From the NCBI GenBank assembly GCA_038046805.1, contig JBBSVO010000006.1, positions 172,976 through 236,975 of the forward strand: a stretch of 64,000 nt of DNA, given 5' to 3'. Of this stretch, positions 3,369 to 64,000 are shown in pieces (the stretch's first letter is position 1; every line of letters begins with the position of its first letter). The notes beneath the pieces were generated by a model. It saw only the letters and a program-made list of their open reading frames with translations, did no database searches and was not told the origin of the DNA. The stretch is from Candidatus Micrarchaeota archaeon. GTDB taxonomy: Archaea; Micrarchaeota; Micrarchaeia; Anstonellales; Bilamarchaeaceae. A program made the position numbers and the translations under genes.

Positions 3369-4952
3369 TTGAATTTCATGTTTGACCCGCTCTTAAGTAA
3401 AGCCTGGAAAGATGCTTGTCGAGTCCTTTTTGGACAGGAGATAGGTGAACTCCAAGATTATAGCGATTGGCTTGCAGAAATGGTTGATGCTCCAATAGTA
3501 AAAAAATCTAGTATTTCTGGAAAAGAAGTCATTCATTCAAGGGCGGACTATTCAGATTCTGCACGGTCGATAAGCCTTGAAGAAATAGACATCGGAAAAA
3601 AGTTCAACCCACTCAGTATAAACGAAATAAAGGATATTGATAGCATAATCGAGGCAATTCAAGATAGGATTTTTTATACTGGAAATATCATACTTGGCAA
3701 TTCAAAGGAAGTGCAAAAAAGCTCGAATATAAATGACAGTTTTTACATCTATAATACAACTCTTTCCGGGAATTCAAAATACATGGCTTTTTGCACCCTT
3801 GCGAGGTTGGACTCATATGGTTTTGGAGGAAATGCTTTCAGTCAATGCGATTTCTGCATCAAATGTCATGAACTTACGCGCGTGAAAAGATCATTTGAAC
3901 TGTGGATGAGCCAGGATTGCTCTGATTGCTATTACTCGCATGGATTGAAAAACAGTTCAAATTGCTTTTTTTGCTTTAACCTGGACAATGCGCGATACAC
4001 TATAGGAAATTTGCAATTGCCACCAGATAAGTATGCAGAACTGAAAACCAAACTGATTTCTGAAATAGTGGATGAGTTAAAACGTGAAAAGAGAATACCT
4101 TCTCTTACTGAGATAGTACGGGATTGCGATGGTGAGATACGTTTACCTTCCAGTAATTCAAAAGTTGCAGTTAAGCAACCAGTCGACCAGAAAAAAATAG
4201 ATGGGGAATTTGTCAAGACCTTTGAAATACTATTCAAAAAAAGACCATCAAAAAACATTGACGAATATGCATCTTGGTTATCCAGACACGTGAGAGGATT
4301 TGAAAGATGCAAATCCGCGGCAAGCGGAAGCGACGTATTTCTTGCAAGATATGGAAATTATTGCGACTTACCCAAGAATCGTCTTTTAACTTTGGATGAA
4401 GCAAAGGGAATAGGCCAAACTTTAAAACTAACTGCCGAGGATGTAAACTGCATTAGTTTCAAAAACATCGGTAAAAACCTGGGAAAGATCGCATTTTTCA
4501 ATACAGACATCCAGGATGGGCAAAATGCGAATAATTTTGAGTGCACCATAACGATAGATGCGTTTAACTGCCATAGGTCAGTATGCAGCGTATACTCTAA
4601 ATTTTGCGCTTATTCTTTTTGGCCAAGAAGTTCACAACACATATTTGGCGGGGATACTGTCTTTGATTCAGCCTTTTGTATCAATAGTTATAACTCAGTA
4701 AATCTTCAGAGATGTATGGAAATGGATGGCTGCAACAGCTGTTCTGATTCTTATTTCTGCCATAACTGCGAAAATCTCCAGAATTCGATGTTCTGCTTCA
4801 ATACAAAAAACAAAAGATACGCGATCGGCAATGCCGAATTGGAACGGGAGAGCTATGCAAAAATAAAAGAGGGCATTCTGGAACAGATATACCAGGAACT
4901 CGAAAAGAGTGGAAAAAGCAAATATGATATTTTTAGCCTTGGAGAAACGTAA
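3369..4952 (+). CDS. Cys-rich repeat protein, fused two-module form (uncharacterised family)
   Basis: 527 aa with an internal duplication. Each half ends in C..C..NS.FCFN..N.RY.IGN…Y..LK..L..EI..EL (residues ~200-240 and ~480-520). The N-half is homologous to ORF 30397..31170 and the C-half to ORF 29626..30387. TTG start at 3369 per the ORF track, with an alternative ATG at 3378. Confidence 0.6.
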   Translation: MNFMFDPLLSKAWKDACRVLFGQEIGELQDYSDWLAEMVDAPIVKKSSISGKEVIHSRADYSDSARSISLEEIDIGKKFNPLSINEIKDIDSIIEAIQDRIFYTGNIILGNSKEVQKSSNINDSFYIYNTTLSGNSKYMAFCTLARLDSYGFGGNAFSQCDFCIKCHELTRVKRSFELWMSQDCSDCYYSHGLKNSSNCFFCFNLDNARYTIGNLQLPPDKYAELKTKLISEIVDELKREKRIPSLTEIVRDCDGEIRLPSSNSKVAVKQPVDQKKIDGEFVKTFEILFKKRPSKNIDEYASWLSRHVRGFERCKSAASGSDVFLARYGNYCDLPKNRLLTLDEAKGIGQTLKLTAEDVNCISFKNIGKNLGKIAFFNTDIQDGQNANNFECTITIDAFNCHRSVCSVYSKFCAYSFWPRSSQHIFGGDTVFDSAFCINSYNSVNLQRCMEMDGCNSCSDSYFCHNCENLQNSMFCFNTKNKRYAIGNAELERESYAKIKEGILEQIYQELEKSGKSKYDIFSLGET

Positions 4953-10694: not shown

Positions 10695-10712
10695 TGATTC
10701 AACTGCCTTGGG

Positions 10713-11522
10713 CTATGGGCCTTGAGCAATGAGCCCTGTGCTCTGGGCCACCTCATTTAGAATCAGCAACGTACCCACTATCGCGAGCAATGCCGCCATC
10801 ATTGTCCTTTGTTTTTTTTCGTCTATCCTGGCAGAGTGTCCGGCGCCAATCCATGCCCCGGTCATTGCACCAACCAGCACTACCCCCGCCACGCTGAGAT
10901 TTACATTCCCAAGCGCGTAATGCGTCATTGAGCTGGGTATTGCGTATATCGCAATCATCATCAGGGATGTGGGAACCGCTTTTTTGATTGAAATCCCCCG
11001 CATTTTCGTCAGAAGCGGGACAAGAAGTGCACCCCCGCCTATCCCGAAGAATCCAGATGCGAATCCTGCAGATGCACCGATCGCAGTTGTATTGATTATT
11101 TTTTTATTCAATTCTCCTTCTGCACTTTCTGTATCTCCCATCGTCTCGGTGTTTTTTTCTCTTTCCAAAAATGTCATTGCCGCAAGCACAAGGATAAGGA
11201 TTCCCAGAAGTGCCATAAGCCAGCTTCCGGCGATATACTGCGTGAGCATTGCGCCGATGATTGAGAACACAATGCCGGCAATCCCGCCAATCAGAGCGGT
11301 TTTGTATTTTATCAGCCCCTGTTTGGAAAACTGAAGCGCTCCGGCAATAGCGGTTGGTATCGTCAGTGTAATTGCAGTACCAACTGCCTCGGTTCCAGAG
11401 AACCCAAGGAGAATCCGGAAAACAGGTATTGCTACAATTGCCCCGCCTATTCCGAACAGCGATGCAAGAACGCCTATGAGAATTCCTGCAACGAATAGTA
11501 ATGCTATCAGCATGATTTCCAT
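10713..11522 (-). CDS. sulfite exporter TauE/SafE family membrane protein
   Basis: Two-repeat hydrophobic architecture with GIGGG motifs. Confidence 0.7.
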   Translation of the reverse strand: MEIMLIALLFVAGILIGVLASLFGIGGAIVAIPVFRILLGFSGTEAVGTAITLTIPTAIAGALQFSKQGLIKYKTALIGGIAGIVFSIIGAMLTQYIAGSWLMALLGILILVLAAMTFLEREKNTETMGDTESAEGELNKKIINTTAIGASAGFASGFFGIGGGALLVPLLTKMRGISIKKAVPTSLMMIAIYAIPSSMTHYALGNVNLSVAGVVLVGAMTGAWIGAGHSARIDEKKQRTMMAALLAIVGTLLILNEVAQSTGLIAQGP

Positions 11523-17091: not shown

Positions 17092-17230
17092 ACTATTCAT
17101 CGTCTCGCAAACTACGAAGTTGTTTTTTTTGACTTCGGATATTATGGATGGTCACCTCATATTAGTGGTTTGCTATAATGTGGCCTCTCTTTTTATTCTT
17201 TGTTTTTCATTATATCCCCAGTTGATTAGC

Positions 17231-18700
17231 ATGCAAATTGACAAACACTCCAAGTTCTCAGAATGGTATAATACGATTACAAAGGATGCCGAGCTGTGCG
17301 ACCTCAGATATAATCTTAAGGGCTTTATTGTTTTCATGCCATGGGCGGTCATGAGCATGAAGCGTATGTATTCCATTTACGAGCGCGAACTCGAAGCACA
17401 CGGGCACGTTCCTGCATTGTTTCCAGCACTTATCCCCGAGAGCAATTTTAAGGGGGAAAAGGAGCATGTTGAAGGATTTATTCCGGAAGTGTTTTGGGTT
17501 ACCGAAGCAGGCAGGGAAAAACTTGAGGAAAGATATGCGATGAGGCCGACAAGTGAAACTGCCATGTACCCGATGTATTCTCTCTGGATTCAGGGTTTGA
17601 AAGATTTGCCTCTCAAAATCTATCAGAGCTGTCAGGTGTGGAGACACGAAACCAAAGCCACAAGACCATTCATTCGTTCGCGTGAGTTCTGGTGGATCGA
17701 AGCACATGATGTTTTTGCTACTGAACAAGAAGCATTTGCACAGGTTAAAGAAGATATGGAAACTGCAGAGAAGATCATTCACGGTGTGTTCGGAGTCCCA
17801 TTTCTATTCTTCAAACGGCCGCAATGGGATAAGTTCGCAGGAGCAGATGATACTTATGCAGCAGACTGCATAATGCCGGATGGCCGTGCCCTTCAGTTGC
17901 CTTCAACACATATGCTTGGTCAGCATTTTTCAAAGGCTTTTGGCGTAAAATATATGGATGCTGAGGGGAAGGAACAGTATGGATGGCAGACGTGTTACGG
18001 TCCATGCATTTCAAGAATTTATGCTGCAGTAATCTCAGTTCACGGGGATGATAAAGGTCTTATTCTTCCGTTTGAACTTGCCCCAGTCCAGGTCGTAATC
18101 GTTCCGATTTACAAGGGTGAAAACAAAAAAATCGTTGATTCCGAGTGCGGAAAAATTGAAAAAATATTGCGGGAAAGCGGAATAAAAGTGAAGTTCGACA
18201 ATTCCGAGAACACGCCTGGCTTCAAGTTCAATCATTGGGAAATGAAAGGGGTTCCGCTTCGTGTTGATATAGGTGAGCGGGACATTTCAAACAAAAGCGT
18301 AGTTGTAGTGCGTCGCGATAACCGTGAAAAATCATTCGTGAAAGTTGCGGAACTTATTGAAAAAATAAACAAATCTGCAAAAGATGTTTCAAATTCCATC
18401 AGGGAAAAAGCCGATCAATGGTTCAAAGGCAAGGTCAATTCTGCAACAACTATGAAAGAGCTATCAAATATCCTCGAAACAACTGGTGGATTTGTACGTG
18501 TTCCGTTCTGCACTGATGAAATGGAAGGAGAAAAATGTGCGGATAAGATAAAGGAGGAAACCCATGCGAACATGCGCGGTTCTCTTTTTGAAGGAAGAGA
18601 AATCGGAAAAGAAGGAAAAGAAAAGCCAAAAGAATCCGAGAAATGCATCGCGTGCGGGAAAAAGGCGAAAATCTATTTGTATGCGGCGAGACAATACTAA
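17231..18700 (+). CDS. proS: proline--tRNA ligase (archaeal/eukaryotic type)
   Basis: Class II motifs (FRSREFWWIEAH) and FSEWYN start region. ORF 17120 carries a likely spurious N-terminal extension. Confidence 0.85.
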   Translation: MQIDKHSKFSEWYNTITKDAELCDLRYNLKGFIVFMPWAVMSMKRMYSIYERELEAHGHVPALFPALIPESNFKGEKEHVEGFIPEVFWVTEAGREKLEERYAMRPTSETAMYPMYSLWIQGLKDLPLKIYQSCQVWRHETKATRPFIRSREFWWIEAHDVFATEQEAFAQVKEDMETAEKIIHGVFGVPFLFFKRPQWDKFAGADDTYAADCIMPDGRALQLPSTHMLGQHFSKAFGVKYMDAEGKEQYGWQTCYGPCISRIYAAVISVHGDDKGLILPFELAPVQVVIVPIYKGENKKIVDSECGKIEKILRESGIKVKFDNSENTPGFKFNHWEMKGVPLRVDIGERDISNKSVVVVRRDNREKSFVKVAELIEKINKSAKDVSNSIREKADQWFKGKVNSATTMKELSNILETTGGFVRVPFCTDEMEGEKCADKIKEETHANMRGSLFEGREIGKEGKEKPKESEKCIACGKKAKIYLYAARQY

Positions 18701-18737
18701 TTTTTATTTTGTTGTGCCGCAATAACCTCTTTACATT

Positions 18738-18870
18738 AGCCCCGTCGTCTAGAGTGTCCCGTGTCTTGAGTCCAGCGTCCAGAATACGGAACGTTAAACG
18801 GGAGACAGACTTTGGTCAAGGATAGTGGACTTTGGATCCATTGACACCGGTTCGAATCCGGCCGGGGCTA
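18738..18870 (+). tRNA. tRNA-Gln(UUG) with ~59-nt D-loop intron
   Basis: 7-bp acceptor AGCCCCG/CGGGGCT, T-arm ACCGG-TTCGAAT-CCGGC, anticodon arm GTGGA-CTTTGGA-TCCAT. An extra ~59 nt lies between D-stem halves GTCT…GGAT. Confidence 0.55.
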
Positions 18871-18912
18871 TATAATTTTTTTCAGTTTCCGGTCTCGGGT
18901 CTCGAGTTCCGG

Positions 18913-19005
18913 TTATATTTTTGGGCCCGTGGTCGATACGTTTGCAAAAACGCGACAGCGGTAAGACGCTACTCTCACACAGTAGAGACACGGGGTTCAA
19001 TTCCT
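18913..19005 (+). tRNA. tRNA-Val(CAC) with short D-loop intron
   Basis: Acceptor GGGCCCG/CGGGCCC+A, T-arm CGGGG-TTCAATT-CCTCG, anticodon arm CTACT-CTCACAC-AGTAG. ~18 extra nt sit in the D region. Confidence 0.5.
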
Positions 19006-19126
19006 CGCGGGCCCAATTTTTCCTTTGTATTGCGTTTAGTGTCTTTGGTTTTAACTCTTGAAAAATTGGGAAGAAGTAAAATTTCAGCAGAAATTTTATA
19101 ACAGCTCATTTTTCTATTTATCTGCT

Positions 19127-24616: not shown

Positions 24617-25315
24617 TTATTCATTCAACGGCGGAACATATTTCCGTAATATGACTCTCTCACGTTCAACTCCAAGACTTTCCGCAAATTCAATGTACTC
24701 TTCTGCTGTTCTTGTTTTCACTTCTCCATCATCAAATCCTATAACAAAACTTGCAAATGTGGCTATTCCACTTTTAATACAATTCCGGACGAATTCAATC
24801 AATCTTCCGAACGCATCCTCGTCTTTCCATCTTGGTCTGGATATGGCCGCGTATTCATCGCGGTTTATCGCATTAACCGAAATTCTTATTTCATCAAGTC
24901 CAGCTTCTCTTAATTCTTGTGCCGGATTTCCATCCCTCCAGCATTTTACTAATCCATTCGTGTCTATTCGCATTCTTCCTGTAAACCCACCCGATTTTGT
25001 TCCAGTTATTACTTTACATGCAAGCTCAAATTGCAAAAGCGGTTCTCCAAGTCCAACAAATGCAACCTCACTCGTGTCCGAGCCAATGTTTGCCCTCAGT
25101 TCACGCAATACCTCTTCTGTCAATGGTGCCTTTGCTAGCCACAACTTTGCGCCAGCCTTTTTCTCGTATATATTTGCTTTGCCTTCTATTGCTGCGCCTC
25201 TGCTGCAAAACCTGCATGAATTCGAACAAGAATAACTCGGCACTATATTCACATATAAAATATCCGCTTTTGGGTCATACGGGGTTGCAAACTGGTATAC
25301 TATCCTGTTCTTCAT
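24617..25315 (-). CDS. small radical SAM protein (function unknown)
   Basis: CSNSCRFC CxxxCxxC cluster. 232 aa with no SPASM domain. Overlaps the aaRS-like gene by 4 nt. Confidence 0.6.
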   Translation of the reverse strand: MKNRIVYQFATPYDPKADILYVNIVPSYSCSNSCRFCSRGAAIEGKANIYEKKAGAKLWLAKAPLTEEVLRELRANIGSDTSEVAFVGLGEPLLQFELACKVITGTKSGGFTGRMRIDTNGLVKCWRDGNPAQELREAGLDEIRISVNAINRDEYAAISRPRWKDEDAFGRLIEFVRNCIKSGIATFASFVIGFDDGEVKTRTAEEYIEFAESLGVERERVILRKYVPPLNE

Positions 25316-26280
25316 TCCATCACCTCCCGTATTTTACCAGGAAATTTTTCAAAATCTGCCCCGTAGTTCGTAAGTAAGGCAAACATCATTCGTTCCAGCC
25401 CGATTCCAGTGCAACCACTCCACAATGCTGTGCAGTTCTGACCAGTAATACTAAATCTTGAAGTCAGGATGGTTGAGAGAACCGCGCTGCCAGCGACTTC
25501 CAAAAATGAGCTTCCGTTTCTGTATCCCGGGCAATATATTTCCAAGTCTTTAACCGGTATTTCATCTAATGTTTGCGGAGGCCCTAGCTCCCCGGGTTTT
25601 ATCTCGTAGCATCCACTACCAACAACTATCCGGTATTCTAATCCTAAATCAACGCATAATCTTTCCAATCGGGCAAGGCATTCCTCTCTAATTTGTATGG
25701 TCTGAGCTTTAGTTCCCAAATATATAAATTCTGCCCTATGGAACTCCCTTTGTTTCACAAGAGGAACTATCTTATCAGAATCCTCGTTTCTATATGTTGG
25801 GCCAGAGCAATCAAACCATTTTACGGGCAGGGAACTTGGCTCTATCACGTTTCCTTCAAATATCTGATAAAATGTTGTACATTGCAAGGGATCCATAAGA
25901 TATTCTTCCCTGACGCCTTTCGTACTTGAAAATGGTCTGACTACAATTAAATAGTCATCCCAATTACCGGTAATTCCTGCTTTTCTAAACGTTTTCACTG
26001 GGGCAATTTTTGGCAGGACTACTTCCTCAAAGACAAGCGGTTTTTGCATATCCTCCGTAAGCAACGTGCAAACCGCATTCAGAAGTCTCGTTCCTTTTGG
26101 CAATAGCACATACTGCCCTGAGCCTCTTACGAATTCCTTACAGATATCATTTTCAGCGCGAGCATCAAAGCCCCCCGGGGTCCCTCTAAATCCTTTCTTC
26201 CCTCTTTTGATTAATGCGCCCTCGGTTGTCGGAATTTGTTTGGTTGCAGTTGTCAAAATTGGCATGATATGTTCGCTCAA
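25312..26280 (-). CDS. class II aminoacyl-tRNA-synthetase-like catalytic-core protein (no anticodon-binding domain)
   Basis: Motif-2-like YRNEDS…REFHRAEF and motif-3-like GCTGIGLERMMFALL, class IIa flavour. 322 aa. Confidence 0.5.
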   Translation of the reverse strand: MSEHIMPILTTATKQIPTTEGALIKRGKKGFRGTPGGFDARAENDICKEFVRGSGQYVLLPKGTRLLNAVCTLLTEDMQKPLVFEEVVLPKIAPVKTFRKAGITGNWDDYLIVVRPFSSTKGVREEYLMDPLQCTTFYQIFEGNVIEPSSLPVKWFDCSGPTYRNEDSDKIVPLVKQREFHRAEFIYLGTKAQTIQIREECLARLERLCVDLGLEYRIVVGSGCYEIKPGELGPPQTLDEIPVKDLEIYCPGYRNGSSFLEVAGSAVLSTILTSRFSITGQNCTALWSGCTGIGLERMMFALLTNYGADFEKFPGKIREVME

Positions 26281-29625: not shown

Positions 29626-30387
29626 TCATTCAAGCGCATTGTAACTATCCGTCTCAAACGTACAGTTCTTTTCGAGCGCGCCCGCGATTTCCCAGCAAAT
29701 CTTTTCCTTTATCTTCATGTAGCTCTCGCGCCCGACCTCAACATTCCCGATTGCGTAATTCTTATTTTTCACATTAAAACAGAACATTGAATTATGCACA
29801 TTCTCAACATTATGGCAGAACATTGAATTGGAACAATTCCGTGCTAAATCCATCTCCATGCATGCGGAAAGGTTTGAGGTATTGTAGCATTTCATGCAGA
29901 ATTTTGAAGACGCTACACGATAGCAACCAAATAAGGATTCCGAATCTATTGTTGAGAATGAATATGCGGCATTCCTAGTTTTGAAAATGTCAAACGATTT
30001 GTACACGTTGATGCAGTCCAGGTACTCCGTAGTCTCGGATACGTTTATGTTCGTTCCTTCCACGAAATCCGGGACGAATAATGCGTTCTGTTTGAGTTTT
30101 TCCGTTATTGTCGAGAGCGTTTCGTTCGCTCCAATTTCAATTTTTTTGTTTTCCGCTTGCTGCAAATTGTTCCATGAAACCACTTTCCCGCGCGGGATTT
30201 TTCCAAAGAATGCGTAGTTTGGGAGGTATGTGCTTCCAGTCCCGATAACCGAGCGGATGGTTTCGCCATTCGAAATCCGTGCGGAAAACCAATCCTCGAA
30301 TTTGTCAAGTGGCGAGAGTGCGGTTCCGATTATTAATCTTGTAGTAGTTCCGAACGATTTTTCCAGTTCAGGATTTGTGTTTGCCAT
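29626..30387 (-). CDS. Cys-rich repeat protein, C-module (split form)
   Basis: Homologous to the C-half of 3369..4952 (CMEMD…NSMFCFNVKNKNYAIGNVEVGRESYMKIKE). Confidence 0.55.
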   Translation of the reverse strand: MANTNPELEKSFGTTTRLIIGTALSPLDKFEDWFSARISNGETIRSVIGTGSTYLPNYAFFGKIPRGKVVSWNNLQQAENKKIEIGANETLSTITEKLKQNALFVPDFVEGTNINVSETTEYLDCINVYKSFDIFKTRNAAYSFSTIDSESLFGCYRVASSKFCMKCYNTSNLSACMEMDLARNCSNSMFCHNVENVHNSMFCFNVKNKNYAIGNVEVGRESYMKIKEKICWEIAGALEKNCTFETDSYNALE

Positions 30388-30396
30388 GATAATGCC

Positions 30397-31170
30397 TCAC
30401 GTATCCGGCCCAGCAATCTCGAACAAGGACGGAAATTTCTTATTCCGTGCGAGTTCATCCGCAATTTCCGCAATAAGTTTAGCTTTCAGTACAAGATACT
30501 TCTCTTTCGGCAATTCATTATTTCCGATTATGTTCCGCTTTGAAGTCTGATTAAATGAAAACAAAGCATCGTGACAGCTTCGGCAATTGAAAGAAAAGAA
30601 AAGGTCAGACGAATTTATGGAAAGATACGCTTCAAGGCATCGCACGGATTTGAATGTCACCTGCGTTCTTATTGCAAACCTTACTTCGCCAACAAGCATG
30701 CATCCATAAACGTTTTCGCATTCCCTTGCTCCGTAGGTATATGCGACGTTTTTCGAACGTATGACCTGGTGCGAAGCCAGTGTAAACGCAGCATCATTGC
30801 ACGCATCGCTTTGCTCAACTTCAACACAATTGCCAATATTACTATTCCCGCAATAGTAAAGCCGCTCGCTTATAGCGGAACGGATTGAATCAATATCCTT
30901 TATGTCGTTCACATTGATGGCAGGAGTCGCCTGCTTATCAATCTCGTCAAGCGAGACAAATCCCGCCTCGCGCGAGTAATATTTTCGTGATAAATACACG
31001 TCCTTTCCCGATATCGCAGACCGCATCAGAAGCGGCTTCTCAACCATTTCTGAAAGATATTCTTGACATTCCGAAAGCTGTCCGATTTCCTTTCCGAGGA
31101 GGATTTTTGCGGTAGAAAAAAATTGCGAATCGAAATCCATCTGGTGCCCCCAACAAACTACACTACTCAA
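30397..31170 (-). CDS. Cys-rich repeat protein, N-module (split form)
   Basis: Homologous to the N-half of 3369..4952 (LLGKEIGQLSECQEYLSEMVEKP…IKDIDSIRSAISERLYY…FSFNQTSKRNIIGN). Confidence 0.55.
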   Translation of the reverse strand: MSSVVCWGHQMDFDSQFFSTAKILLGKEIGQLSECQEYLSEMVEKPLLMRSAISGKDVYLSRKYYSREAGFVSLDEIDKQATPAINVNDIKDIDSIRSAISERLYYCGNSNIGNCVEVEQSDACNDAAFTLASHQVIRSKNVAYTYGARECENVYGCMLVGEVRFAIRTQVTFKSVRCLEAYLSINSSDLFFSFNCRSCHDALFSFNQTSKRNIIGNNELPKEKYLVLKAKLIAEIADELARNKKFPSLFEIAGPDT

Positions 31171-31511: not shown

Positions 31512-31771
31512 ACTCTATCACGTCCATTTTACTTATTTTAACTTTTCATAAAAAAAATCCTACAAAATTAGAAAGATTTATATACTTTATAGTATTATGT
31601 TGAAATGGAAAGGCAAGGAGCCGAGGTCCTCCCAAAGGAAATTCATCTCCCCCTCGGCGACCTTCCTCCCCAAGTTGCGTTTCCAGTTTTGAGTTTCGCG
31701 TCTCGCGTAACGATGCGGGATACAAAACGCTAAACGCAAGACCCAAGACGCTGGGTCCAAGACAATAGTGC

Positions 31772-36324: not shown

Positions 36325-37248
36325 ATGATGCAAATAACCTTTATCGGAACAGGCGGTTCTGCTCCAACTCCATCACGTGGTTTACCCGCAATAGCGATCC
36401 ATGCAAAGGAACTCATGCTTTTTGACTGCGGCGAGGGAACCCAGCGTCAGATGATGCGATATAAAGTCGGCTATGGTTCAGTGCGTGCAATTTTCATCTC
36501 TCATATGCACCTTGACCATTATCTCGGAATTTTCGGGCTTCTTGAAACACTGAGAATGAATTCTCCCTCACCAAAGCCACTTCACATTTTCGCTCCAGCG
36601 GCATTCTATGAAAAATTTTTGGCAATCAGCGGTTACAAAGCGGCAAACTACAAATTTGTTGAAATACATTCAATTCGCGTCGACGGTTCGAATTCGGAAA
36701 GTAAAATTTACGAAAATGATGAATTCGAAGTCAGTGCGTTTCCGGTAGAGCACGGAATGCGGGATGCGTTTGGTTTCATAATAAAAGAAAAGGACAAGAT
36801 AAAATTCCACGAAGAAAAAGCACACGGACTCGGATTAAAAGGAAAATTATTCCGCACGATTCAGGACAAGGGTGAGGTCACGGTTGGCGGAAAGAAAATC
36901 AGACTCAAGGAGGTTAGTTGGGTAAAAGAAGGCGCAAGGATAGTTTACACTGGAGACACAACCTCCTCAAAATCCGTAGCCTCTGCGGCAAAGGGAGCTG
37001 CCCTTCTTATCCACGACGCTACTTTTTCATCCGAATCCAATGCCTCCGAAACTGAAAAGCGGGAGCATTCCTCTGCAAAGGATGCTGCAGAAATCGCAAA
37101 AAAAGCTGGAGTAACTCAGCTTGTCCTCACGCATATAAGTGCGAGATATTCTGAAAAAGAAGACAAAACCAGGCTTTTGGAAGAAGCAAAAGCGGTTTTT
37201 TCATCAACAATCCTTGCGGAAGACGGTTTGGTAGTTGATGTAAAATAA
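36325..37248 (+). CDS. rnz: ribonuclease Z (tRNase Z)
   Basis: ITFIGTGGSAPT…HMHLDHYLG metallo-beta-lactamase motifs. Confidence 0.85.
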   Translation: MMQITFIGTGGSAPTPSRGLPAIAIHAKELMLFDCGEGTQRQMMRYKVGYGSVRAIFISHMHLDHYLGIFGLLETLRMNSPSPKPLHIFAPAAFYEKFLAISGYKAANYKFVEIHSIRVDGSNSESKIYENDEFEVSAFPVEHGMRDAFGFIIKEKDKIKFHEEKAHGLGLKGKLFRTIQDKGEVTVGGKKIRLKEVSWVKEGARIVYTGDTTSSKSVASAAKGAALLIHDATFSSESNASETEKREHSSAKDAAEIAKKAGVTQLVLTHISARYSEKEDKTRLLEEAKAVFSSTILAEDGLVVDVK

Positions 37249-41338: not shown

Positions 41339-41434
41339 ACGCTAGACGCAAGACTCAGGACTCAAGACCCAAGACTCCAGACACATACCCCGAGACCCCC
41401 TCTATTTTTATTTTTTGCCGCATTTATCCCGCGT

Positions 41435-42825: not shown

Positions 42826-43056
42826 AGCCTCAAGAGAGATTTGAACTCCCGACCTCCTCCTTTCTACACCCAATCTCCCCGTAAGAGGGGGTTTGGGCGG
42901 CATGAAAGGCACTAAGGGGGACGCTTCCCCCTTTGGGCCTTCTACAAGAGAGGCGCTCTACATCCAGAAGTCTTGCGTTTCGTATTCCGTGTTTTGAGCC
43001 GGATAAGACTCAGGACAATAGGACAAAACCCAAAACTTTCACTGAGCTATTGAGGC
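42826..43056 (-). tRNA. tRNA-Thr(UGU) with two introns (D-loop ~80 nt; canonical 37/38 ~85 nt), 231 nt total
   Basis: Acceptor GCCTCAA/TTGAGGC, TA-GCTC…GAGC D-stem, anticodon arm CCTCT-CTTGTA[intron]A-GGAGG, variable AGGTC, T-arm GGGAG-TTCAAAT-CTCTC. Confidence 0.5.
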
Positions 43057-44325: not shown

Positions 44326-44817
44326 CTACACAACCCTTAAGATTAGTCTTTTCTTCACGTAATTGAGTACCTTTTCGTAATTGATATAATGCGAATATGC
44401 GGTTAATTCCATAGGGTAATTCCCATCTCTTGTCTGGTTGCTTCCCCAGATAGGGATAACCAATTCTACGGAAACCCCTGCCTTTATTTCTCCAAGTCTT
44501 TTTTCCATATGCTTGTTTATGCAGGTTGGTTCAAATCCAATCATTTCCTTTTTTGGAAGTAGGATATCTACAGATACCAGTTGCAGTTCATTCGTAGTAT
44601 TCGTCAATTTGACGATCATCCTCACCATGTTATCCTTTCTTGCAGACAATCTTACTGGAACAAAAGAAGTAACTACGTTGAATGGGGCATTGGATTGTTG
44701 TACCTCTGTCCGAACTTCTTTGCGTTCACTAGAACTTCCCATCAATGAATCTAAAAATCCCATTTTGTCACCTTTTACATCTATTATAATTCGTTGCCTT
44801 TTCTGACGTATATGCAA
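44326..44817 (-). CDS. hypothetical protein co-oriented with pilin genes
   Basis: ORF only. Confidence 0.3.
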   Translation of the reverse strand: MHIRQKRQRIIIDVKGDKMGFLDSLMGSSSERKEVRTEVQQSNAPFNVVTSFVPVRLSARKDNMVRMIVKLTNTTNELQLVSVDILLPKKEMIGFEPTCINKHMEKRLGEIKAGVSVELVIPIWGSNQTRDGNYPMELTAYSHYINYEKVLNYVKKRLILRVV

Positions 44818-45204: not shown

Positions 45205-45365
45205 TGTTAAACTTCTTCTTGCAGTCCACATGTTTTTAACAATAGCGGAACAAATTTTCAATTATGTCCGAAGCACCATTAGTTGAAATAGACGCGTCAA
45301 AGGGAGAAGGCGGTTTGTTTGAACGACGAATCGTCCAAAGCCCGCCTTCCCAAAAAGGCAATTGC

Positions 45366-46376
45366 ATGGTTGAAATAGACGCGTCAAAGGGAGAAGGCGG
45401 CGGTCAGATTATCCGAACTGCCCTTTCACTCTCAGCAATTACCAAAATTCCGGTTCGTATTTTCAATATTCGTGCTAAAAGACCTAATCCTGGCCTTCAG
45501 GCACAGCATCTTATGGCTTGCAAATCCGTTCGCAATATTTGTCGCGGAACTCTTGAACATGCGGAATTAAATAGCAGCGAACTTGTTTTTCATCCAGGGG
45601 AAATCGTCGGGGGCAATTATGAATTTGATATAGGGACTGCGGGTTCTGTTGTTCTTGTTGCCCAGACTTTGATTCCTATTCTTCTATTTGCAAACAAGAA
45701 AAGCACCGTTCGGATAAAGGGCGGTACTCATGTCATGAAATCTCCAAGTTATGATTATTTCGCAGAGGTCTTTGTTCCTGCTCTTCGGAAATTTGGAATC
45801 GCTATTAAAACCCGTGTCTTGAAAATCGGTTTTTATCCTGTTGGCGGAGGAGAAATAGAATTTGAAATAGAACCGAACCTTCCGCATGGTGTGGTGAATT
45901 GGGCAACTCCTGATAATTCTGAAGGAAAAAGAGTATTGATCCGCACTTCCTCGTCTTTGCCCGAACTCATCTCTATTCGCGAAAAGAAAATTTTTGTCCA
46001 GAATAATCTCGAAAATGTGCGGGTATTCTCCGACCAAACTGCTTCACAAGGAAACGCCATCTTGTTCTGGGAAGGTTTCTGCGGAGCATATTCTCTTGGA
46101 GAAAGGGGAAAACGTGCAGAAGTGGTTGCTCAGGAAGCTCTTGATGAATTCAGAAAAGAAGAATCTGCGCAAGCCGACGTAGATAAGCATCTTGCAGACC
46201 AGCTTCTTCTCTACGCGGCCCTTGCTGACGCTTCTGGCGAAAAGGCGGAGACGCGGTTCAAAACATCTGAAATAACGGAACATCTGCGTACGAATGCAGA
46301 AATAATAAAAAAATTCAATAATAAAAAAATAGAAATAAATGAAGAGAAAAAAGAGGTTTTTGTTGGATCACTATAG
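45366..46376 (+). CDS. rtcA: RNA 3'-terminal phosphate cyclase
   Basis: MVEIDASKGEGGGQIIRTALSLS matches the RtcA N-terminus. ORF 45264 adds a repeat-derived 34-aa extension. Confidence 0.8.
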   Translation: MVEIDASKGEGGGQIIRTALSLSAITKIPVRIFNIRAKRPNPGLQAQHLMACKSVRNICRGTLEHAELNSSELVFHPGEIVGGNYEFDIGTAGSVVLVAQTLIPILLFANKKSTVRIKGGTHVMKSPSYDYFAEVFVPALRKFGIAIKTRVLKIGFYPVGGGEIEFEIEPNLPHGVVNWATPDNSEGKRVLIRTSSSLPELISIREKKIFVQNNLENVRVFSDQTASQGNAILFWEGFCGAYSLGERGKRAEVVAQEALDEFRKEESAQADVDKHLADQLLLYAALADASGEKAETRFKTSEITEHLRTNAEIIKKFNNKKIEINEEKKEVFVGSL

Positions 46377-47816: not shown

Positions 47817-48094
47817 CGTTCCTGAGCATGTTCAAGAACGAAATGTCGTTCTTGACATGAAACCCTCAGACCTTTTCTTTTTTAAAAGAAAAGGGGTATG
47901 GGTTTGAACCTGTGAAGACGCTAGGTCATCAGATTTCCTATCCCGCATTCGGGAAAAGAACAAACGAGATCTTGAGTCTGACGCGTTTGACCGTTGCGAA
48001 ACCAGTTTCCAGTTGCCTGTTTCCAGTTCCCAAAACGCGAAACTGAAAACCCTAGACAGAAAACTGACTTCTCCGCCACCCCTGCGCATTATAT

Positions 48095-60034: not shown

Positions 60035-60212
60035 TGGGCCCGTTGTGATTTGAACACAAGACCTTTCGATTTCTATTGCATTTGTGCGATATCAGTCGAA
60101 CGCTCCAACCGGATTGCTCGTCCCTTCGGACTTTTTCTGCCTCAGGACTTTTCCGCTGGAGCGCTTTTGTCCTTTGGCTTCTGAAGTCAAAAGGGCCCTG
60201 AGCTACGGGCCC
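60035..60212 (-). tRNA. tRNA-Ile(GAU) with two introns (D-loop ~83 nt; canonical 37/38 19 nt), 178 nt
   Basis: GGGCCCG-TA-GCTC…GAGC-G-TTCGA-CTGATA[19 nt]A-TCGAA-AGGTC-TTGTG-TTCAAAT-CACAA-CGGGCCC-A. All stems pair canonically. Confidence 0.6.
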
Positions 60213-61090: not shown

Positions 61091-62215
61091 GTGAAAATCG
61101 CTATTATTTCTGATACTCATTTGGGTTATGCCCGTTTTGAGGATGATGCAGCCGAGCAGGCAGAATCAGCATTTCTTGATGCAGCAAAAAAAGCAGATCT
61201 TATTCTTTACGCCGGAGATGTTTTTGACGTGAAAGTCCCGCGTTTGGAAACAATGAGGCACGCGGTTGACATGCTCAGGAAAGCAGGCGCGTCCAGAGTT
61301 CCAATCTACGCAATCCACGGAAACCACGAAAGAAGAAGCAAGGACATGGTTAATCCTGTTCAGCTCTTGGCGACTGTTGGGGTTCTCAATTACCTGCACG
61401 CAAGCGGAACAATTTTTGAAAAAAATAATGAAAGGATTTTCATTTTCGGGATGGGGAGCGTGCCAGAGGATTTAGCCGCAACTGCATTGAAGACCGCGGT
61501 AGGGCGGGTTGAAGTGCCGAGTGGAATGCTTAGAATTCTTATGCTTCACCAGACTATAAAGGATTTTTCGCTTGGGGGAGAGGACGATCTCACGATGGAT
61601 GAAATTTCAGGCCTACCTTTTGACTTAATTGTGAACGGACACATCCACAAGACGATAATTAATAACGAAGAAAATATGTTAATCCCGGGAAGTACTGTCA
61701 TCACCCAGCTTAAGGAGGATGAAACTGCCCCGCGCGGGTACATACTTTATGATACCTCTTCCAAAAAACCAGAATTTGTTGAAATCCCGCACCGAAAGTT
61801 TCTTTACGCGGAATTGAAATTCTCTTCTGCGAGTATGGTTGAAGTGCGAAATGTAGTAATTGAGAAGCTTGCGGAACTGAAAAAATTGGCAGATGGGGCG
61901 AAAAAACAACCAATAATTCGCATAAAACTTTCTGGAACTCTTAAGGAAGGAATCCGTCCATCAGATTTATTCATCTCAGCAGATGGGGCATTTATAGATA
62001 ATCAGTTGAACCGTAACGATGCGGGGATGAAACTTTCTCTTCCTTCCACTCCATCCGGAAGAACCGGAACAGTAACTGAAATAGCAATTTCTCTTCTGCG
62101 GAATAAAATCGGGGACAAAATGAAGCTGCTGGATCCAGCAATACTTTTTGATAAAGTTTCTGGCGATGTTGAATCTGCAGCGGAATATGTAAACTCAGCC
62201 GGTAATTCTCAATAA
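61091..62215 (+). CDS. Mre11/SbcD-family metallophosphoesterase (DNA repair nuclease-like)
   Basis: IAIISDTHLG…GDVFD…IHGNHE…GHIH calcineurin-like motifs. Confidence 0.65.
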   Translation: MKIAIISDTHLGYARFEDDAAEQAESAFLDAAKKADLILYAGDVFDVKVPRLETMRHAVDMLRKAGASRVPIYAIHGNHERRSKDMVNPVQLLATVGVLNYLHASGTIFEKNNERIFIFGMGSVPEDLAATALKTAVGRVEVPSGMLRILMLHQTIKDFSLGGEDDLTMDEISGLPFDLIVNGHIHKTIINNEENMLIPGSTVITQLKEDETAPRGYILYDTSSKKPEFVEIPHRKFLYAELKFSSASMVEVRNVVIEKLAELKKLADGAKKQPIIRIKLSGTLKEGIRPSDLFISADGAFIDNQLNRNDAGMKLSLPSTPSGRTGTVTEIAISLLRNKIGDKMKLLDPAILFDKVSGDVESAAEYVNSAGNSQ

Positions 62216-63316
62216 TGCATCTGCAAACTCCTTTGCATTTGCAGCGCTTTTCAAAGAAACATCCGAGAAATGGGTTCTCATGGTTTTGAATCCAAGTGAA
62301 TTCAATTCTTCAATTATCTTGCTCATTTTCGGAACGCTCTTCATGGAAATTCTTCTGCACATCCTGTGAACATTGTAATATCCAGGTGGCATTTCAATTT
62401 CTCCTTCAATCAGTGCCAGAATTTTTTCTATCTCTTCAATATCCTCATAATCTTTTTTTCCGTTGAGTTTTCGCATTTTTGAGAGTGTTTCTCCGTCGTT
62501 TAGCCTCCCAATCCACAGTGGTCCACCCCATCTGGTTTCATTTCCGCAGTTTCCGCATTTTTCAATTATTTTTCCCCAACTTTCTCTCCACCCACATTTT
62601 TCGCAATAAGAAATATAACCAAAGTTCCTTATGTTTTCGTCACTTTTTGCCGCACTACTTTCGCACTTTACAATGACCTTGAGATAATGCCTGTCGGAAA
62701 GAGAAACGAGCGGACTTATTCCAAAATTAAATTCCGAGGCTGCCTCGGCAATTCTCCTAATCAGAATCCGCAATCCGTTTTCGTGCGTAAACTCATTATT
62801 CAGGCTTTTTGCATGATAGTTCTTTAGACAAGCGGTCTTCTCATGGCCGCACAGGACGGCAGTATCTGTTGCAGTAGCGGATAGATAAAATGTTTTCGTT
62901 CCGCTCTGGTTCATGCGGAAGAATACCGCGAATAAATAGGGGGCAGGTGTTCCAAAAGGATCAAGTTCTATGAAGTTAAATTCAAAGTCTGTTGCATCAG
63001 CCACGAGAAATTTTACTATATCATCATTCACAATTTTTGCCTTTCTTGCCGATATTTTGTTTTTTGCCGCATTCTTTTTTGCAAGTGCAATTGCATTTTT
63101 GCTCCAGTCAAGGAAAGTAACAGAACTTACGTTCTTGTTTTCTTTCGCATATCGTATTCCGCGTATTCCGCTTGCGCAGAATCCATCCAGCACATTAAGT
63201 TTTTCTCCAATTGCACCAACTGCAAGGGAGCTGAAGCTGCGGCAGAATCGCATCTCTGGATTGTAGAATATTTTATCTGCTGAGAATATTTTGCTTTCTT
63301 CTTCCATATTTCTCAC
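62195..63316 (-). CDS. trm1: tRNA (guanine26-N2)-dimethyltransferase Trm1
   Basis: FYNPEMRFCR motif plus C-terminal zinc finger (CEKCGW…CGNCG). Confidence 0.8.
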   Translation of the reverse strand: MRNMEEESKIFSADKIFYNPEMRFCRSFSSLAVGAIGEKLNVLDGFCASGIRGIRYAKENKNVSSVTFLDWSKNAIALAKKNAAKNKISARKAKIVNDDIVKFLVADATDFEFNFIELDPFGTPAPYLFAVFFRMNQSGTKTFYLSATATDTAVLCGHEKTACLKNYHAKSLNNEFTHENGLRILIRRIAEAASEFNFGISPLVSLSDRHYLKVIVKCESSAAKSDENIRNFGYISYCEKCGWRESWGKIIEKCGNCGNETRWGGPLWIGRLNDGETLSKMRKLNGKKDYEDIEEIEKILALIEGEIEMPPGYYNVHRMCRRISMKSVPKMSKIIEELNSLGFKTMRTHFSDVSLKSAANAKEFADALLRITG

Positions 63317-63319
63317 GTT

Positions 63320-64000
63320 TTATTTTTCTTCATCAATAAATTCTCTCATTGCAACCGTTGCATAGCTTCCTGCCTGTAGTGAGAACGTAAATATGCCAGC
63401 AATATTATCTTCTTCATCGGTCTTCATATCAAATTCGAAATCCTTTAACGGTGCAAGAAGCGTTCTCAAACTTCCGTTAGAGCTTATTTCCGGGATTTTC
63501 TTCACACGAAAATCGCTTCTTCTGATTCCAAGTTCCTGCAATACTCTTTCCTCGCGTTCGTTTGTTTCTGTTTCATAACCGATTAGTTTGCCGACAATAT
63601 ATCTGCCTTCGTCAGTATCTTTTTTATTTATATCCGGAAATCCGAATTCGTTTTCTCCGCAAAAATATTCCCCCTCTTCGCAGGATATTTCTCCATTCTT
63701 TATCCGTTCTGAAATGCAAATGTTAAATATATAGCTTTGTAACGCATGAACAAACATCAAAAGGATATTACGCGGCAATCTTCTAAGTGCTCCGATATAA
63801 TCTTCCGGAGTTTCTGCCAAATGTGCAAGCATTGAGCGTTCAAGACGGAGGTGTTTTGGAAAGTTTTTCAGCGCAGCGGCGTAATCTTCTGTCTCAAGCA
63901 ATTGTTTTCTTGCCGTGCTTGCAGAATCATTTTTCTCTCCATCCGAGTTTGTCAGGTATTCGGTTACTGCCCCCTCAAAATCTCCTTTTACAATCCGTTC
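63320..64000 (-). CDS. truD: tRNA pseudouridine synthase TruD/Pus7, C-terminal part (gene continues beyond window)
   Basis: C-terminal …AGSYATVAMREF matches the TruD tail. The reading frame stays open to the window edge. Confidence 0.55.
   Translation of the reverse strand, partial: ERIVKGDFEGAVTEYLTNSDGEKNDSASTARKQLLETEDYAAALKNFPKHLRLERSMLAHLAETPEDYIGALRRLPRNILLMFVHALQSYIFNICISERIKNGEISCEEGEYFCGENEFGFPDINKKDTDEGRYIVGKLIGYETETNEREERVLQELGIRRSDFRVKKIPEISSNGSLRTLLAPLKDFEFDMKTDEEDNIAGIFTFSLQAGSYATVAMREFIDEEK

Follow-up and report, generated by a model that had tools for sequence, protein, structure and literature searches.

D-loop insertions that behave as archaeal bulge-helix-bulge introns in adjacent tRNA-Gln and tRNA-Val genes of a groundwater Micrarchaeota archaeon

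For two archaeal groups, ARMAN-2 (Candidatus Micrarchaeum acidiphilum) and the Thermoproteales, it is already established that bulge-helix-bulge (BHB) introns can lie away from the canonical 37/38 site, that their motifs can be relaxed, that one tRNA gene can hold several of them and that a matching endonuclease goes with them. In ARMAN-2, 56% of the tRNA genes are disrupted, and the splicing endonuclease, which is of the epsilon2 type (Fujishima et al. 2011, PMC3239211; Hirata et al. 2012, PMC3488258), accepts both strict and relaxed motifs for cleavage in vitro (PMC3239211). Mancarchaeum likewise has an enzyme of the epsilon2 type, and across DPANN there is a correlation between loop insertions and the disruption of tRNA genes (PMC5829648). 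The canonical rule describes a helix of 4 base pairs (bp) that includes exon bases, then a bulge formed by two bases of the exon and the first of the intron, with cuts after the second bulge base (PMC4090602); for enzymes of the (alpha-beta)2 and epsilon2 types, relaxed forms count as part of the family (PMC3239211, PMC4090602). Here we describe a 64-kilobase (kb) stretch of DNA from a Micrarchaeota archaeon (contig JBBSVO010000006.1, assembly GCA_038046805.1), called the window below, in which adjacent genes for tRNA-Gln(UUG) and tRNA-Val(CAC) carry extra sequence in the D-loop. These are very probably two functional single-intron tRNA genes of a groundwater organism, each with a precursor that holds a BHB-type intron at position 15/16. 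The locus fits the described systems on every testable feature, and its own particulars are a recurrent 15/16 site with a D-stem strand in the central helix, a host from neutral groundwater and a high local density of introns.

Both units lie in the intergenic region 18701-19126, flanked by the prolyl-tRNA synthetase (ProRS) gene at 17144-18700 (Pfam ProRS domains) and by a minus-strand gene of 714 amino acids (aa). The sequence of each unit shows an acceptor stem of 7 bp, a T-arm, an anticodon arm (UUG and CAC, respectively) and additional bases within the D-arm. A first-pass annotation had proposed this pair of adjacent genes, and both are present on the plus strand, with spliced forms that ARAGORN calls. 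It had also placed the insertions in the D-arm and not at 37/38, which holds for both, whereas its sizes of about 59 and 18 nucleotides (nt) become 60 and 21 nt, and its end of the Val gene at 19005 falls 10 nt short of the actual end at 19015. The pair is laid out as follows.

18738-18870, plus strand: tRNA-Gln(UUG) gene, 133 nt including the intron, without encoded CCA; the discriminator A is 18870
18738-18752, plus strand: Gln exon 1, nt 1-15 (acceptor 5' strand, U8, C9, D-stem 5' strand GUCU, A14, G15)
18753-18812, plus strand: Gln intron, 60 nt, position 15/16, placed by folding and anchored pair counts
18813-18870, plus strand: Gln exon 2, nt 16-73 (remaining D-arm, anticodon arm with UUG, T-arm with an A49.C65 mismatch, acceptor 3' strand)
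18923-19015, plus strand: tRNA-Val(CAC) gene, 93 nt including the intron, without encoded CCA
18923-18937, plus strand: Val exon 1, nt 1-15, ending in GUCG, A14 and U15
18938-18958, plus strand: Val intron, 21 nt, position 15/16
18959-19015, plus strand: Val exon 2, nt 16-73

The tertiary pair between positions 15 and 48 is kept in both genes, as G15-C48 in Gln and U15-A48 in Val; U15 of Val is able to form a Levitt pair with A48, and the orthologues that have A15 have U48 in its place. Gln exon 1 is identical in eight orthologues.

Standard finders had been expected to miss such genes, and they do. Default ARAGORN called no tRNA in the whole 64-kb window, and the Rfam tRNA model gave none at its gathering score of 29 bits; in E-value mode this model aligned only the 3' two-thirds of each gene, at 18814-18870 (21.2 bits) and 18952-19015 (19.5 bits). 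Deletion of 18753-18812, on the other hand, leaves a 73-nt tRNA-Gln(UUG) that default ARAGORN calls as Gln(ttg), and deletion of 18938-18958 leaves a 72-nt tRNA-Val(CAC) that it calls as Val(cac). The boundaries were searched by deleting every possible segment and scoring the products with ARAGORN at rising thresholds. The best-scoring deletions begin at nt 15-18 and remove 58-62 nt from Gln or 19-22 nt from Val; the chosen deletions lie within this top-scoring set, one solution per set being picked by the BHB rule (PMC4090602). Several other calls were discarded. With its intron option (-i), ARAGORN models Gln with a 46-nt intron at position 29, which forces the true anticodon arm into a long variable arm; a lowered threshold gives Val as "tRNA-Cys(aca)" with a 6-nt intron, by the same mis-modelling of the anticodon arm; and the -i label "tRNA-SeC" for the tRNA-Ile locus of the window, described below, is likewise mis-modelled. 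The T-loop motif GGTTCRAWTCC occurs three times in the window against 0.17 expected, and its third copy, at 44528-44538, was rejected as a tRNA, since it lies inside an opposite-strand open reading frame and lacks a matching acceptor stem. The other Rfam matches obtained in E-value mode (miRNA, snoRNA, Plastid-ycf2, RAGATH-13) are sub-threshold chance, with no further tRNA-like match in the window.

Orthologues allow the junctions to be read directly. One genome per species was scanned with the ProRS protein, a pattern scan of metagenome contigs was added, and the loci were labelled L001 and so on. The neighbouring ProRS has its best match, at 86% identity, in the metagenome-assembled genome (MAG) UBA10214 (L001), and the matches that follow are Micrarchaeota at 54-78%. 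The Gln-Val pair is carried both by L001 and by L058, a metagenome contig that is near-identical to it. Their Val is intronless and reads GTCGATCGGTAAGAC, with the junction GTCGAT/CGGTAAGAC (a slash marks the junction here and below), which no other 21-nt deletion reproduces; the predicted 15/16 solution for Val is unique. Intronless Gln, found in L003 and also in L009 and L010, reads GTCTAGCGGTCAAGG, with the junction GTCTAG/CGGTCAAGG in L003. These three Gln genes and the intronless Val genes of four loci (L001, L058, L060, L061) all match the predicted junctions. Orthologues without the insert read across the predicted junctions, so that, measured against normal genes, the inserts are genuine insertions, and they lie where predicted. 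The splice junctions in RNA are thus predicted as GUCUAG/UGGUC for Gln (longer form GUCUAG/UGGUCAAGG) and GUCGAU/CGGUA for Val (longer form GUCGAU/CGGUAAGAC).

Occupancy of the site is patchy among the relatives. In Gln, introns at 15/16 occur in L001, L005, L008, L059, L060, L061 and L062, with lengths of 38-55 nt compared with 60 nt in the window; L001 and L058 share a homologous 46-nt intron at this site and have a second one in the T-loop. Val(CAC) is interrupted at 15/16 in the window (21 nt), in L002 (40 nt) and in L052 (51 nt), at 37/38 in L008, L009 and L010, and nowhere in L001, L058, L060 and L061. Extra T-loop introns, around 58-60, were seen in Gln or Val genes of L001 (2541-2706), L058, L062 (951-1100) and L002 (9386-9543), and the Gln intron of L002 lies near 25/26 rather than at 15/16.

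The same comparison bears on two readings to which we assign a vanishingly small likelihood, namely that the insertions are an assembly or chimera artefact, or that they are self-splicing group I or group II introns. The source is a metagenome assembly, which would speak for an artefact, but two further assemblies match the region at 100% identity and a third at 99.8%, with one 1-nt gap (those sharing it include ENA ERZ1292622, a 197.6-kb contig from Hainich groundwater well H52, and NCBI GCA_964366365.1), and homologous introns occur in unrelated samples. An assembly artefact is excluded. Inserts of 21 and 60 nt are far below a catalytic core of 200 nt or more, and Rfam matched no group I or II intron family anywhere in the window, even in E-value mode; by size and by Rfam, a group I or II intron is likewise excluded. 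A C/D-box guide RNA inside the Gln intron was also considered and rejected, its sequence, read by eye, holding no UGAUGA or CUGA box.

Bulge-helix-bulge motifs, which the first-pass annotation had wanted sought at the exon-intron junctions, are present in both genes. The D-stem 5' strand (nt 10-13) is paired at all four positions, its partner being the intron tetranucleotide that stands just before the final two bases. In Gln, the central helix (H) joins 18747-18750 (GUCU) to 18807-18810 (AGAC), the 5' bulge is A14, G15/A and the 3' bulge UU/U, and the inner hairpin (h') consists of GU/AC and UCCCGU/ACGGGA. The lower helix (h) is short, made of C9-G and U8.G plus G7, which is also an acceptor-stem base, so that the whole is a near-strict 3-4-3 form. 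In Val, H joins 18932-18935 (GUCG) to 18953-18956 (CGAC), the 5' bulge is AU/A, and h' is a 5-bp CGUUU/AAACG hairpin with a GCAA loop. The Val precursor folds better than its shuffles (z = -4.29), and intron shuffles match the observed pairing in 0 of 5000 trials for Val and 35 of 5000 for Gln.

This geometry is conserved where the site is occupied. Across the 15/16 genes, A14, N15 and the first base of the intron invariably make up the 5' bulge, and the intron hairpin comes next; the partner of GUCU is AGAC, GGAC, GGAU or UGGC, and that of GUCG is CGAC, CGAU or CGGA. H is paired at four of four positions in 8 of 10 cases and at three of four in the other two. Covariation was counted in an in-register alignment of 11 intron-bearing sequences, which include the tRNA-Ile of the window (GCUC/GAGC). 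Standard pairs fill 95.5% of the cells in register, and sliding the partner by 1-3 columns lowers this to 30-52%; three of the four pairs show changes on both sides, and none of 500 shuffles reached the covariation score. It is extremely unlikely that mature RNA retains the inserts, whether as an enlarged D-loop or as an additional arm. They measure 21-60 nt and are absent from close relatives with otherwise identical exons, the D-stem 5' strand is sequestered in a helix that would prevent the D-arm from forming, and the geometry is that of an endonuclease substrate. That the D-loop insertions behave as archaeal BHB introns at 15/16 is thus supported, and the gene structure, the exact junctions, the conserved motif geometry and the patchy presence or absence among relatives are established.

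Several observations weigh against reading the pair as spliced, functional genes. First of all, the 3' junction of Val, AG/C, has a lower helix of 0 bp, the relaxed HBh' form, and the Gln precursor as a whole folds no better than shuffles (z = -1.22). Second, in L005 and L061 the central helix does not run on into the intron hairpin; together with the missing lower helix of Val, this means that recognition would need to tolerate relaxed or three-way-junction substrates. Third, the acceptor and T arms had been described as perfect, but the T-stem of Gln has 4 bp and the A49.C65 mismatch. Finally, the processing enzymes were not seen nearby: no RtcB ligase was seen among the genes of the 64-kb window, and a search of the window and the compared loci for a splicing endonuclease, by the pattern G.D[FY].[VL]Y and by tblastn with M. 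jannaschii EndA (an approximate query), gave nothing below E = 1.5, which is a weak negative.

The mismatch in the T-stem and the silence of the standard finders, which call neither gene, would both suit disrupted pseudogenes, that is, tRNA genes inactivated by the D-loop insertions and no longer used. We consider this very unlikely. The exons still form a full cloverleaf, with the tertiary pairs G15-C48 and U15-A48 preserved, the state of insertion is kept in divergent lineages, and the bases of the splice motif co-vary with the exon. Furthermore, all four tRNA genes in the 64 kb are interrupted (the other two are given below), and if they were dead, this stretch of a small genome would contribute no working tRNA. 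The loci have also kept their TATA-like boxes and T-runs; in L058-L062, boxes of the TTTTTATA type precede the Gln gene by 30-40 nt, and the putative signals in the window are these.

18701-18710, plus strand: candidate archaeal promoter with the TATA-like box TTTTTATTTT, located about 33 nt upstream from where the Gln gene starts
18868-18882, plus strand: CTATATAAT then T7, directly after Gln; may serve Gln as an oligo-T terminator, Val as a TATA box, or both
19017-19021, plus strand: T5 run after Val; candidate terminator

As to the type of enzyme, cleavage and ligation, we infer them, and likewise these transcription signals, which were read from the sequence. In the precursor, the D-stem 5' strand (nt 10-13) leaves its normal partner aside and is captured by a mimic of the D-stem 3' strand (AGAC in Gln, CGAC in Val), which the intron carries four to six bases ahead of its 3' end. 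The resulting 4-bp helix is bounded on one side by the 3-nt bulge of A14, N15 and the first intron base, with the hairpin next to it, and on the other by the last two intron bases and nt 16. For two functional intron-bearing genes, processing might run as follows. An archaeal splicing endonuclease would cut after the second base of each bulge, that is, after G15 or U15 and before nt 16, and an RtcB-type ligase would join the exons, whereupon the D-stem could form with its true partner. Since the Val motif lacks a lower helix, a broad-specificity endonuclease would be needed, such as the epsilon2 type known from Micrarchaeota. Non-canonical introns had been expected to be restricted to particular lineages with an enzyme of this kind, and the host does belong to the Micrarchaeota (DPANN), a phylum in which both such introns and the relaxed-specificity epsilon2 endonuclease are documented (PMC3239211, PMC5829648).

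Other genes for RNA processing in the window encode an RNase Z-like metallo-beta-lactamase at 36325-37248 (plus strand), the RNA 3'-terminal phosphate cyclase RtcA (PF01137, E = 3e-79) at 45264-46376 (plus strand), the tRNA m2,2G methyltransferase Trm1 at 62195-63307 (minus strand) and the pseudouridine synthase TruD at 63320-64000 (minus strand). A 317-aa protein at 25312-26265 (minus strand) has only the core of a class II aminoacyl-tRNA synthetase (PF00587, E = 2e-15), without an anticodon-binding domain, and looks like a stand-alone synthetase-like paralogue.

A custom scan of the window, which used T-arm and acceptor pairing and then tried all deletions with ARAGORN, found two further tRNA genes, each with two insertions.

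60035-60212, minus strand: tRNA-Ile(GAU), interrupted at 15/16 by 84 nt (60114-60197; H = GCUC/GAGC) and at 37/38 by 19 nt (60071-60089)
42826-43056, minus strand: tRNA-Thr(UGU), with a 78-nt intron between the conserved D-loop bases G18 and G19 (42962-43039) and an intron of about 81 nt at 37/38 (42862-42942)

Default ARAGORN and Rfam miss the Ile gene, and ARAGORN calls its doubly spliced product as Ile(gat). The D-loop intron of Thr has H = UCAG/CUGG and an 8-bp h', with boundaries that follow from the motif rule alone, there being no orthologue for it. The window thus holds four tRNA genes with six introns, a small sample; all four have a D-loop intron, which in three lies at 15/16. For comparison, the averages given with tRNAscan-SE 2.0 are 0.21 introns per gene in archaea and 0.84 in the Thermoproteales, where P. 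calidifontis has 71 introns in 46 genes (PMC8450103). A density such as that of the window has been reported so far only for the most intron-rich Thermoproteales, of which P. calidifontis is an example.

We thus turn to the similarities and differences between this locus and the known systems. First of all, ARMAN-2 belongs to the same phylum and shares with the organism studied here non-canonical positions, multiple introns per gene, BHB motifs of strict or nearly strict as well as relaxed form and genes that standard predictors miss, and its T-loop introns resemble those of the relatives L001, L002 and L062. The examples given in the text of PMC3239211, on the other hand, stand at 53/54 and 59/60, in the T-loop, whereas the introns here stand at 15/16 with the D-stem 5' strand in the central helix; and ARMAN-2 is an acid-mine organism, whereas this lineage comes from neutral groundwater. 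Second, the introns of the Thermoproteales (Sugahara et al. 2008; Fujishima et al. 2010), as they are presented in PMC4390854 and PMC4090602, likewise include BHB, HBh' and hBH forms at many positions and several introns per gene. As PMC4390854 presents them, related introns also occur there in different tRNA genes, which was read as transposition; the counterparts here are the pair formed by the Ile intron and the Gln intron of L062 and that formed by the T-loop intron of L001 and the D-loop intron of L060. The Thermoproteales are, however, TACK archaea with an (alpha-beta)2 endonuclease, whereas the present host is a DPANN archaeon, presumably with the epsilon2 type, and here the 15/16 site recurs in three tRNA species within a single 64-kb window. 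Third, canonical introns at 37/38, which the Ile and Thr genes also carry, follow the same motif logic, with cuts after the second base of 3-nt bulges. They differ in position and in the lower helix, which our survey of outer helices puts at 0-3 bp for 15/16, as opposed to the 5-bp anticodon stem at 37/38; a strict alpha4 or alpha'2 enzyme is therefore not expected to cut the Val precursor. Finally, the split and permuted tRNA genes of Nanoarchaeum equitans, Caldivirga and Thermofilum (PMC3218864) rely on the same endonuclease and motif at their junctions, but they consist of separate loci or permuted exons, whereas the exons here are colinear, adjacent and contiguous on the plus strand, so that neither trans-splicing nor permutation is needed.

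Some of the introns resemble one another across genes and positions. The D-loop intron of the window Ile and that of the L062 Gln match at 17 of 19 positions (0 of 20000 shuffles), and the T-loop intron of the L001 Gln aligns over 37 nt with the D-loop intron of the L060 Gln (1 of 20000 shuffles); both results survive correction for 105 comparisons. Four other similarities fail that correction, namely those between Gln and Thr of the window, L061 and L052, the window Gln and the L002 Val, and the window Val and L061. The 10-mer TTTTGACTTC was rejected as a marker of an intron family, since chance copies of it turn up in a terminator hairpin (17127) and within a gene (32651), and only longer, 5'-anchored similarities were used. 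Sequence modules are common to introns of different tRNA species in the D-loop, the T-loop and the anticodon loop, and this sharing hints at intron mobility. The local density, the modules held in common by introns of different species and positions, and the turnover between close relatives together suggest, tentatively, that in groundwater Micrarchaeota a family of mobile BHB introns could have a hot spot at 15/16, a reading that we hold as possible but rather doubtful. If true, introns would still be transposing in DPANN, and each would bring along its own copy of the D-stem 3' strand, by which the splice motif is recreated at the new site.

A tRNA-Leu(UAA) gene (L070), 8.4 kb upstream of the start of the window on the same contig, is interrupted only within its anticodon loop, by an intron that starts with the GCC..TTTTGACTTC..AAG module common to the D-loop introns of Ile and of the L062 Gln. 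The gene is preceded by a truncated copy of itself (the 5' 13 nt, the T-arm and the acceptor 3' strand), and a phage-type integrase gene lies 2.5 kb downstream, these features together occupying L070 919-1132 and 3628-4836; truncated copy and integrase suggest an integrated element that used Leu(UAA) as its attachment site.

Two further features of the window were noted. Arrays with a 7-nt period, made of GTYTCGG or GTCTTGN-like units, occupy 3' intergenic spacers at 18885-18912 (the Gln-Val spacer), 31680-31760, 41339-41382, 48002-48060 and 10705-10749, and similar arrays lie downstream of tRNA genes in L001, L002, L059 and L062. With up to one mismatch, GTYTCGGGTYT occurs 15 times against 3.7 expected, and TRF reports period-7 arrays at 41339-41382 and 48002-48032. 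Three paralogous, unannotated proteins, at 3378-4952 (plus strand), 29626-30387 (minus strand) and 30397-31140 (minus strand), have Cys-rich repeats of the form C..C..S..CF.C.N in their translations.

By this finding, the association of non-canonical introns with broad-specificity endonucleases, known from the acidophilic ARMAN, would also take in Micrarchaeota of neutral groundwater. It also bears on the "missing tRNA" problem in DPANN, for which incomplete tRNA sets have been noted (PMC5829648): all four tRNA genes of these 64 kb escape ARAGORN and the Rfam model, and where tRNA genes are invisible to standard tools, inferences on MAG completeness and codon usage will be wrong unless intron-aware searches are used. 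Furthermore, the same site with and without an intron, and with nearly strict and relaxed motifs, provides a natural series for studies of enzyme specificity and of intron gain and loss.

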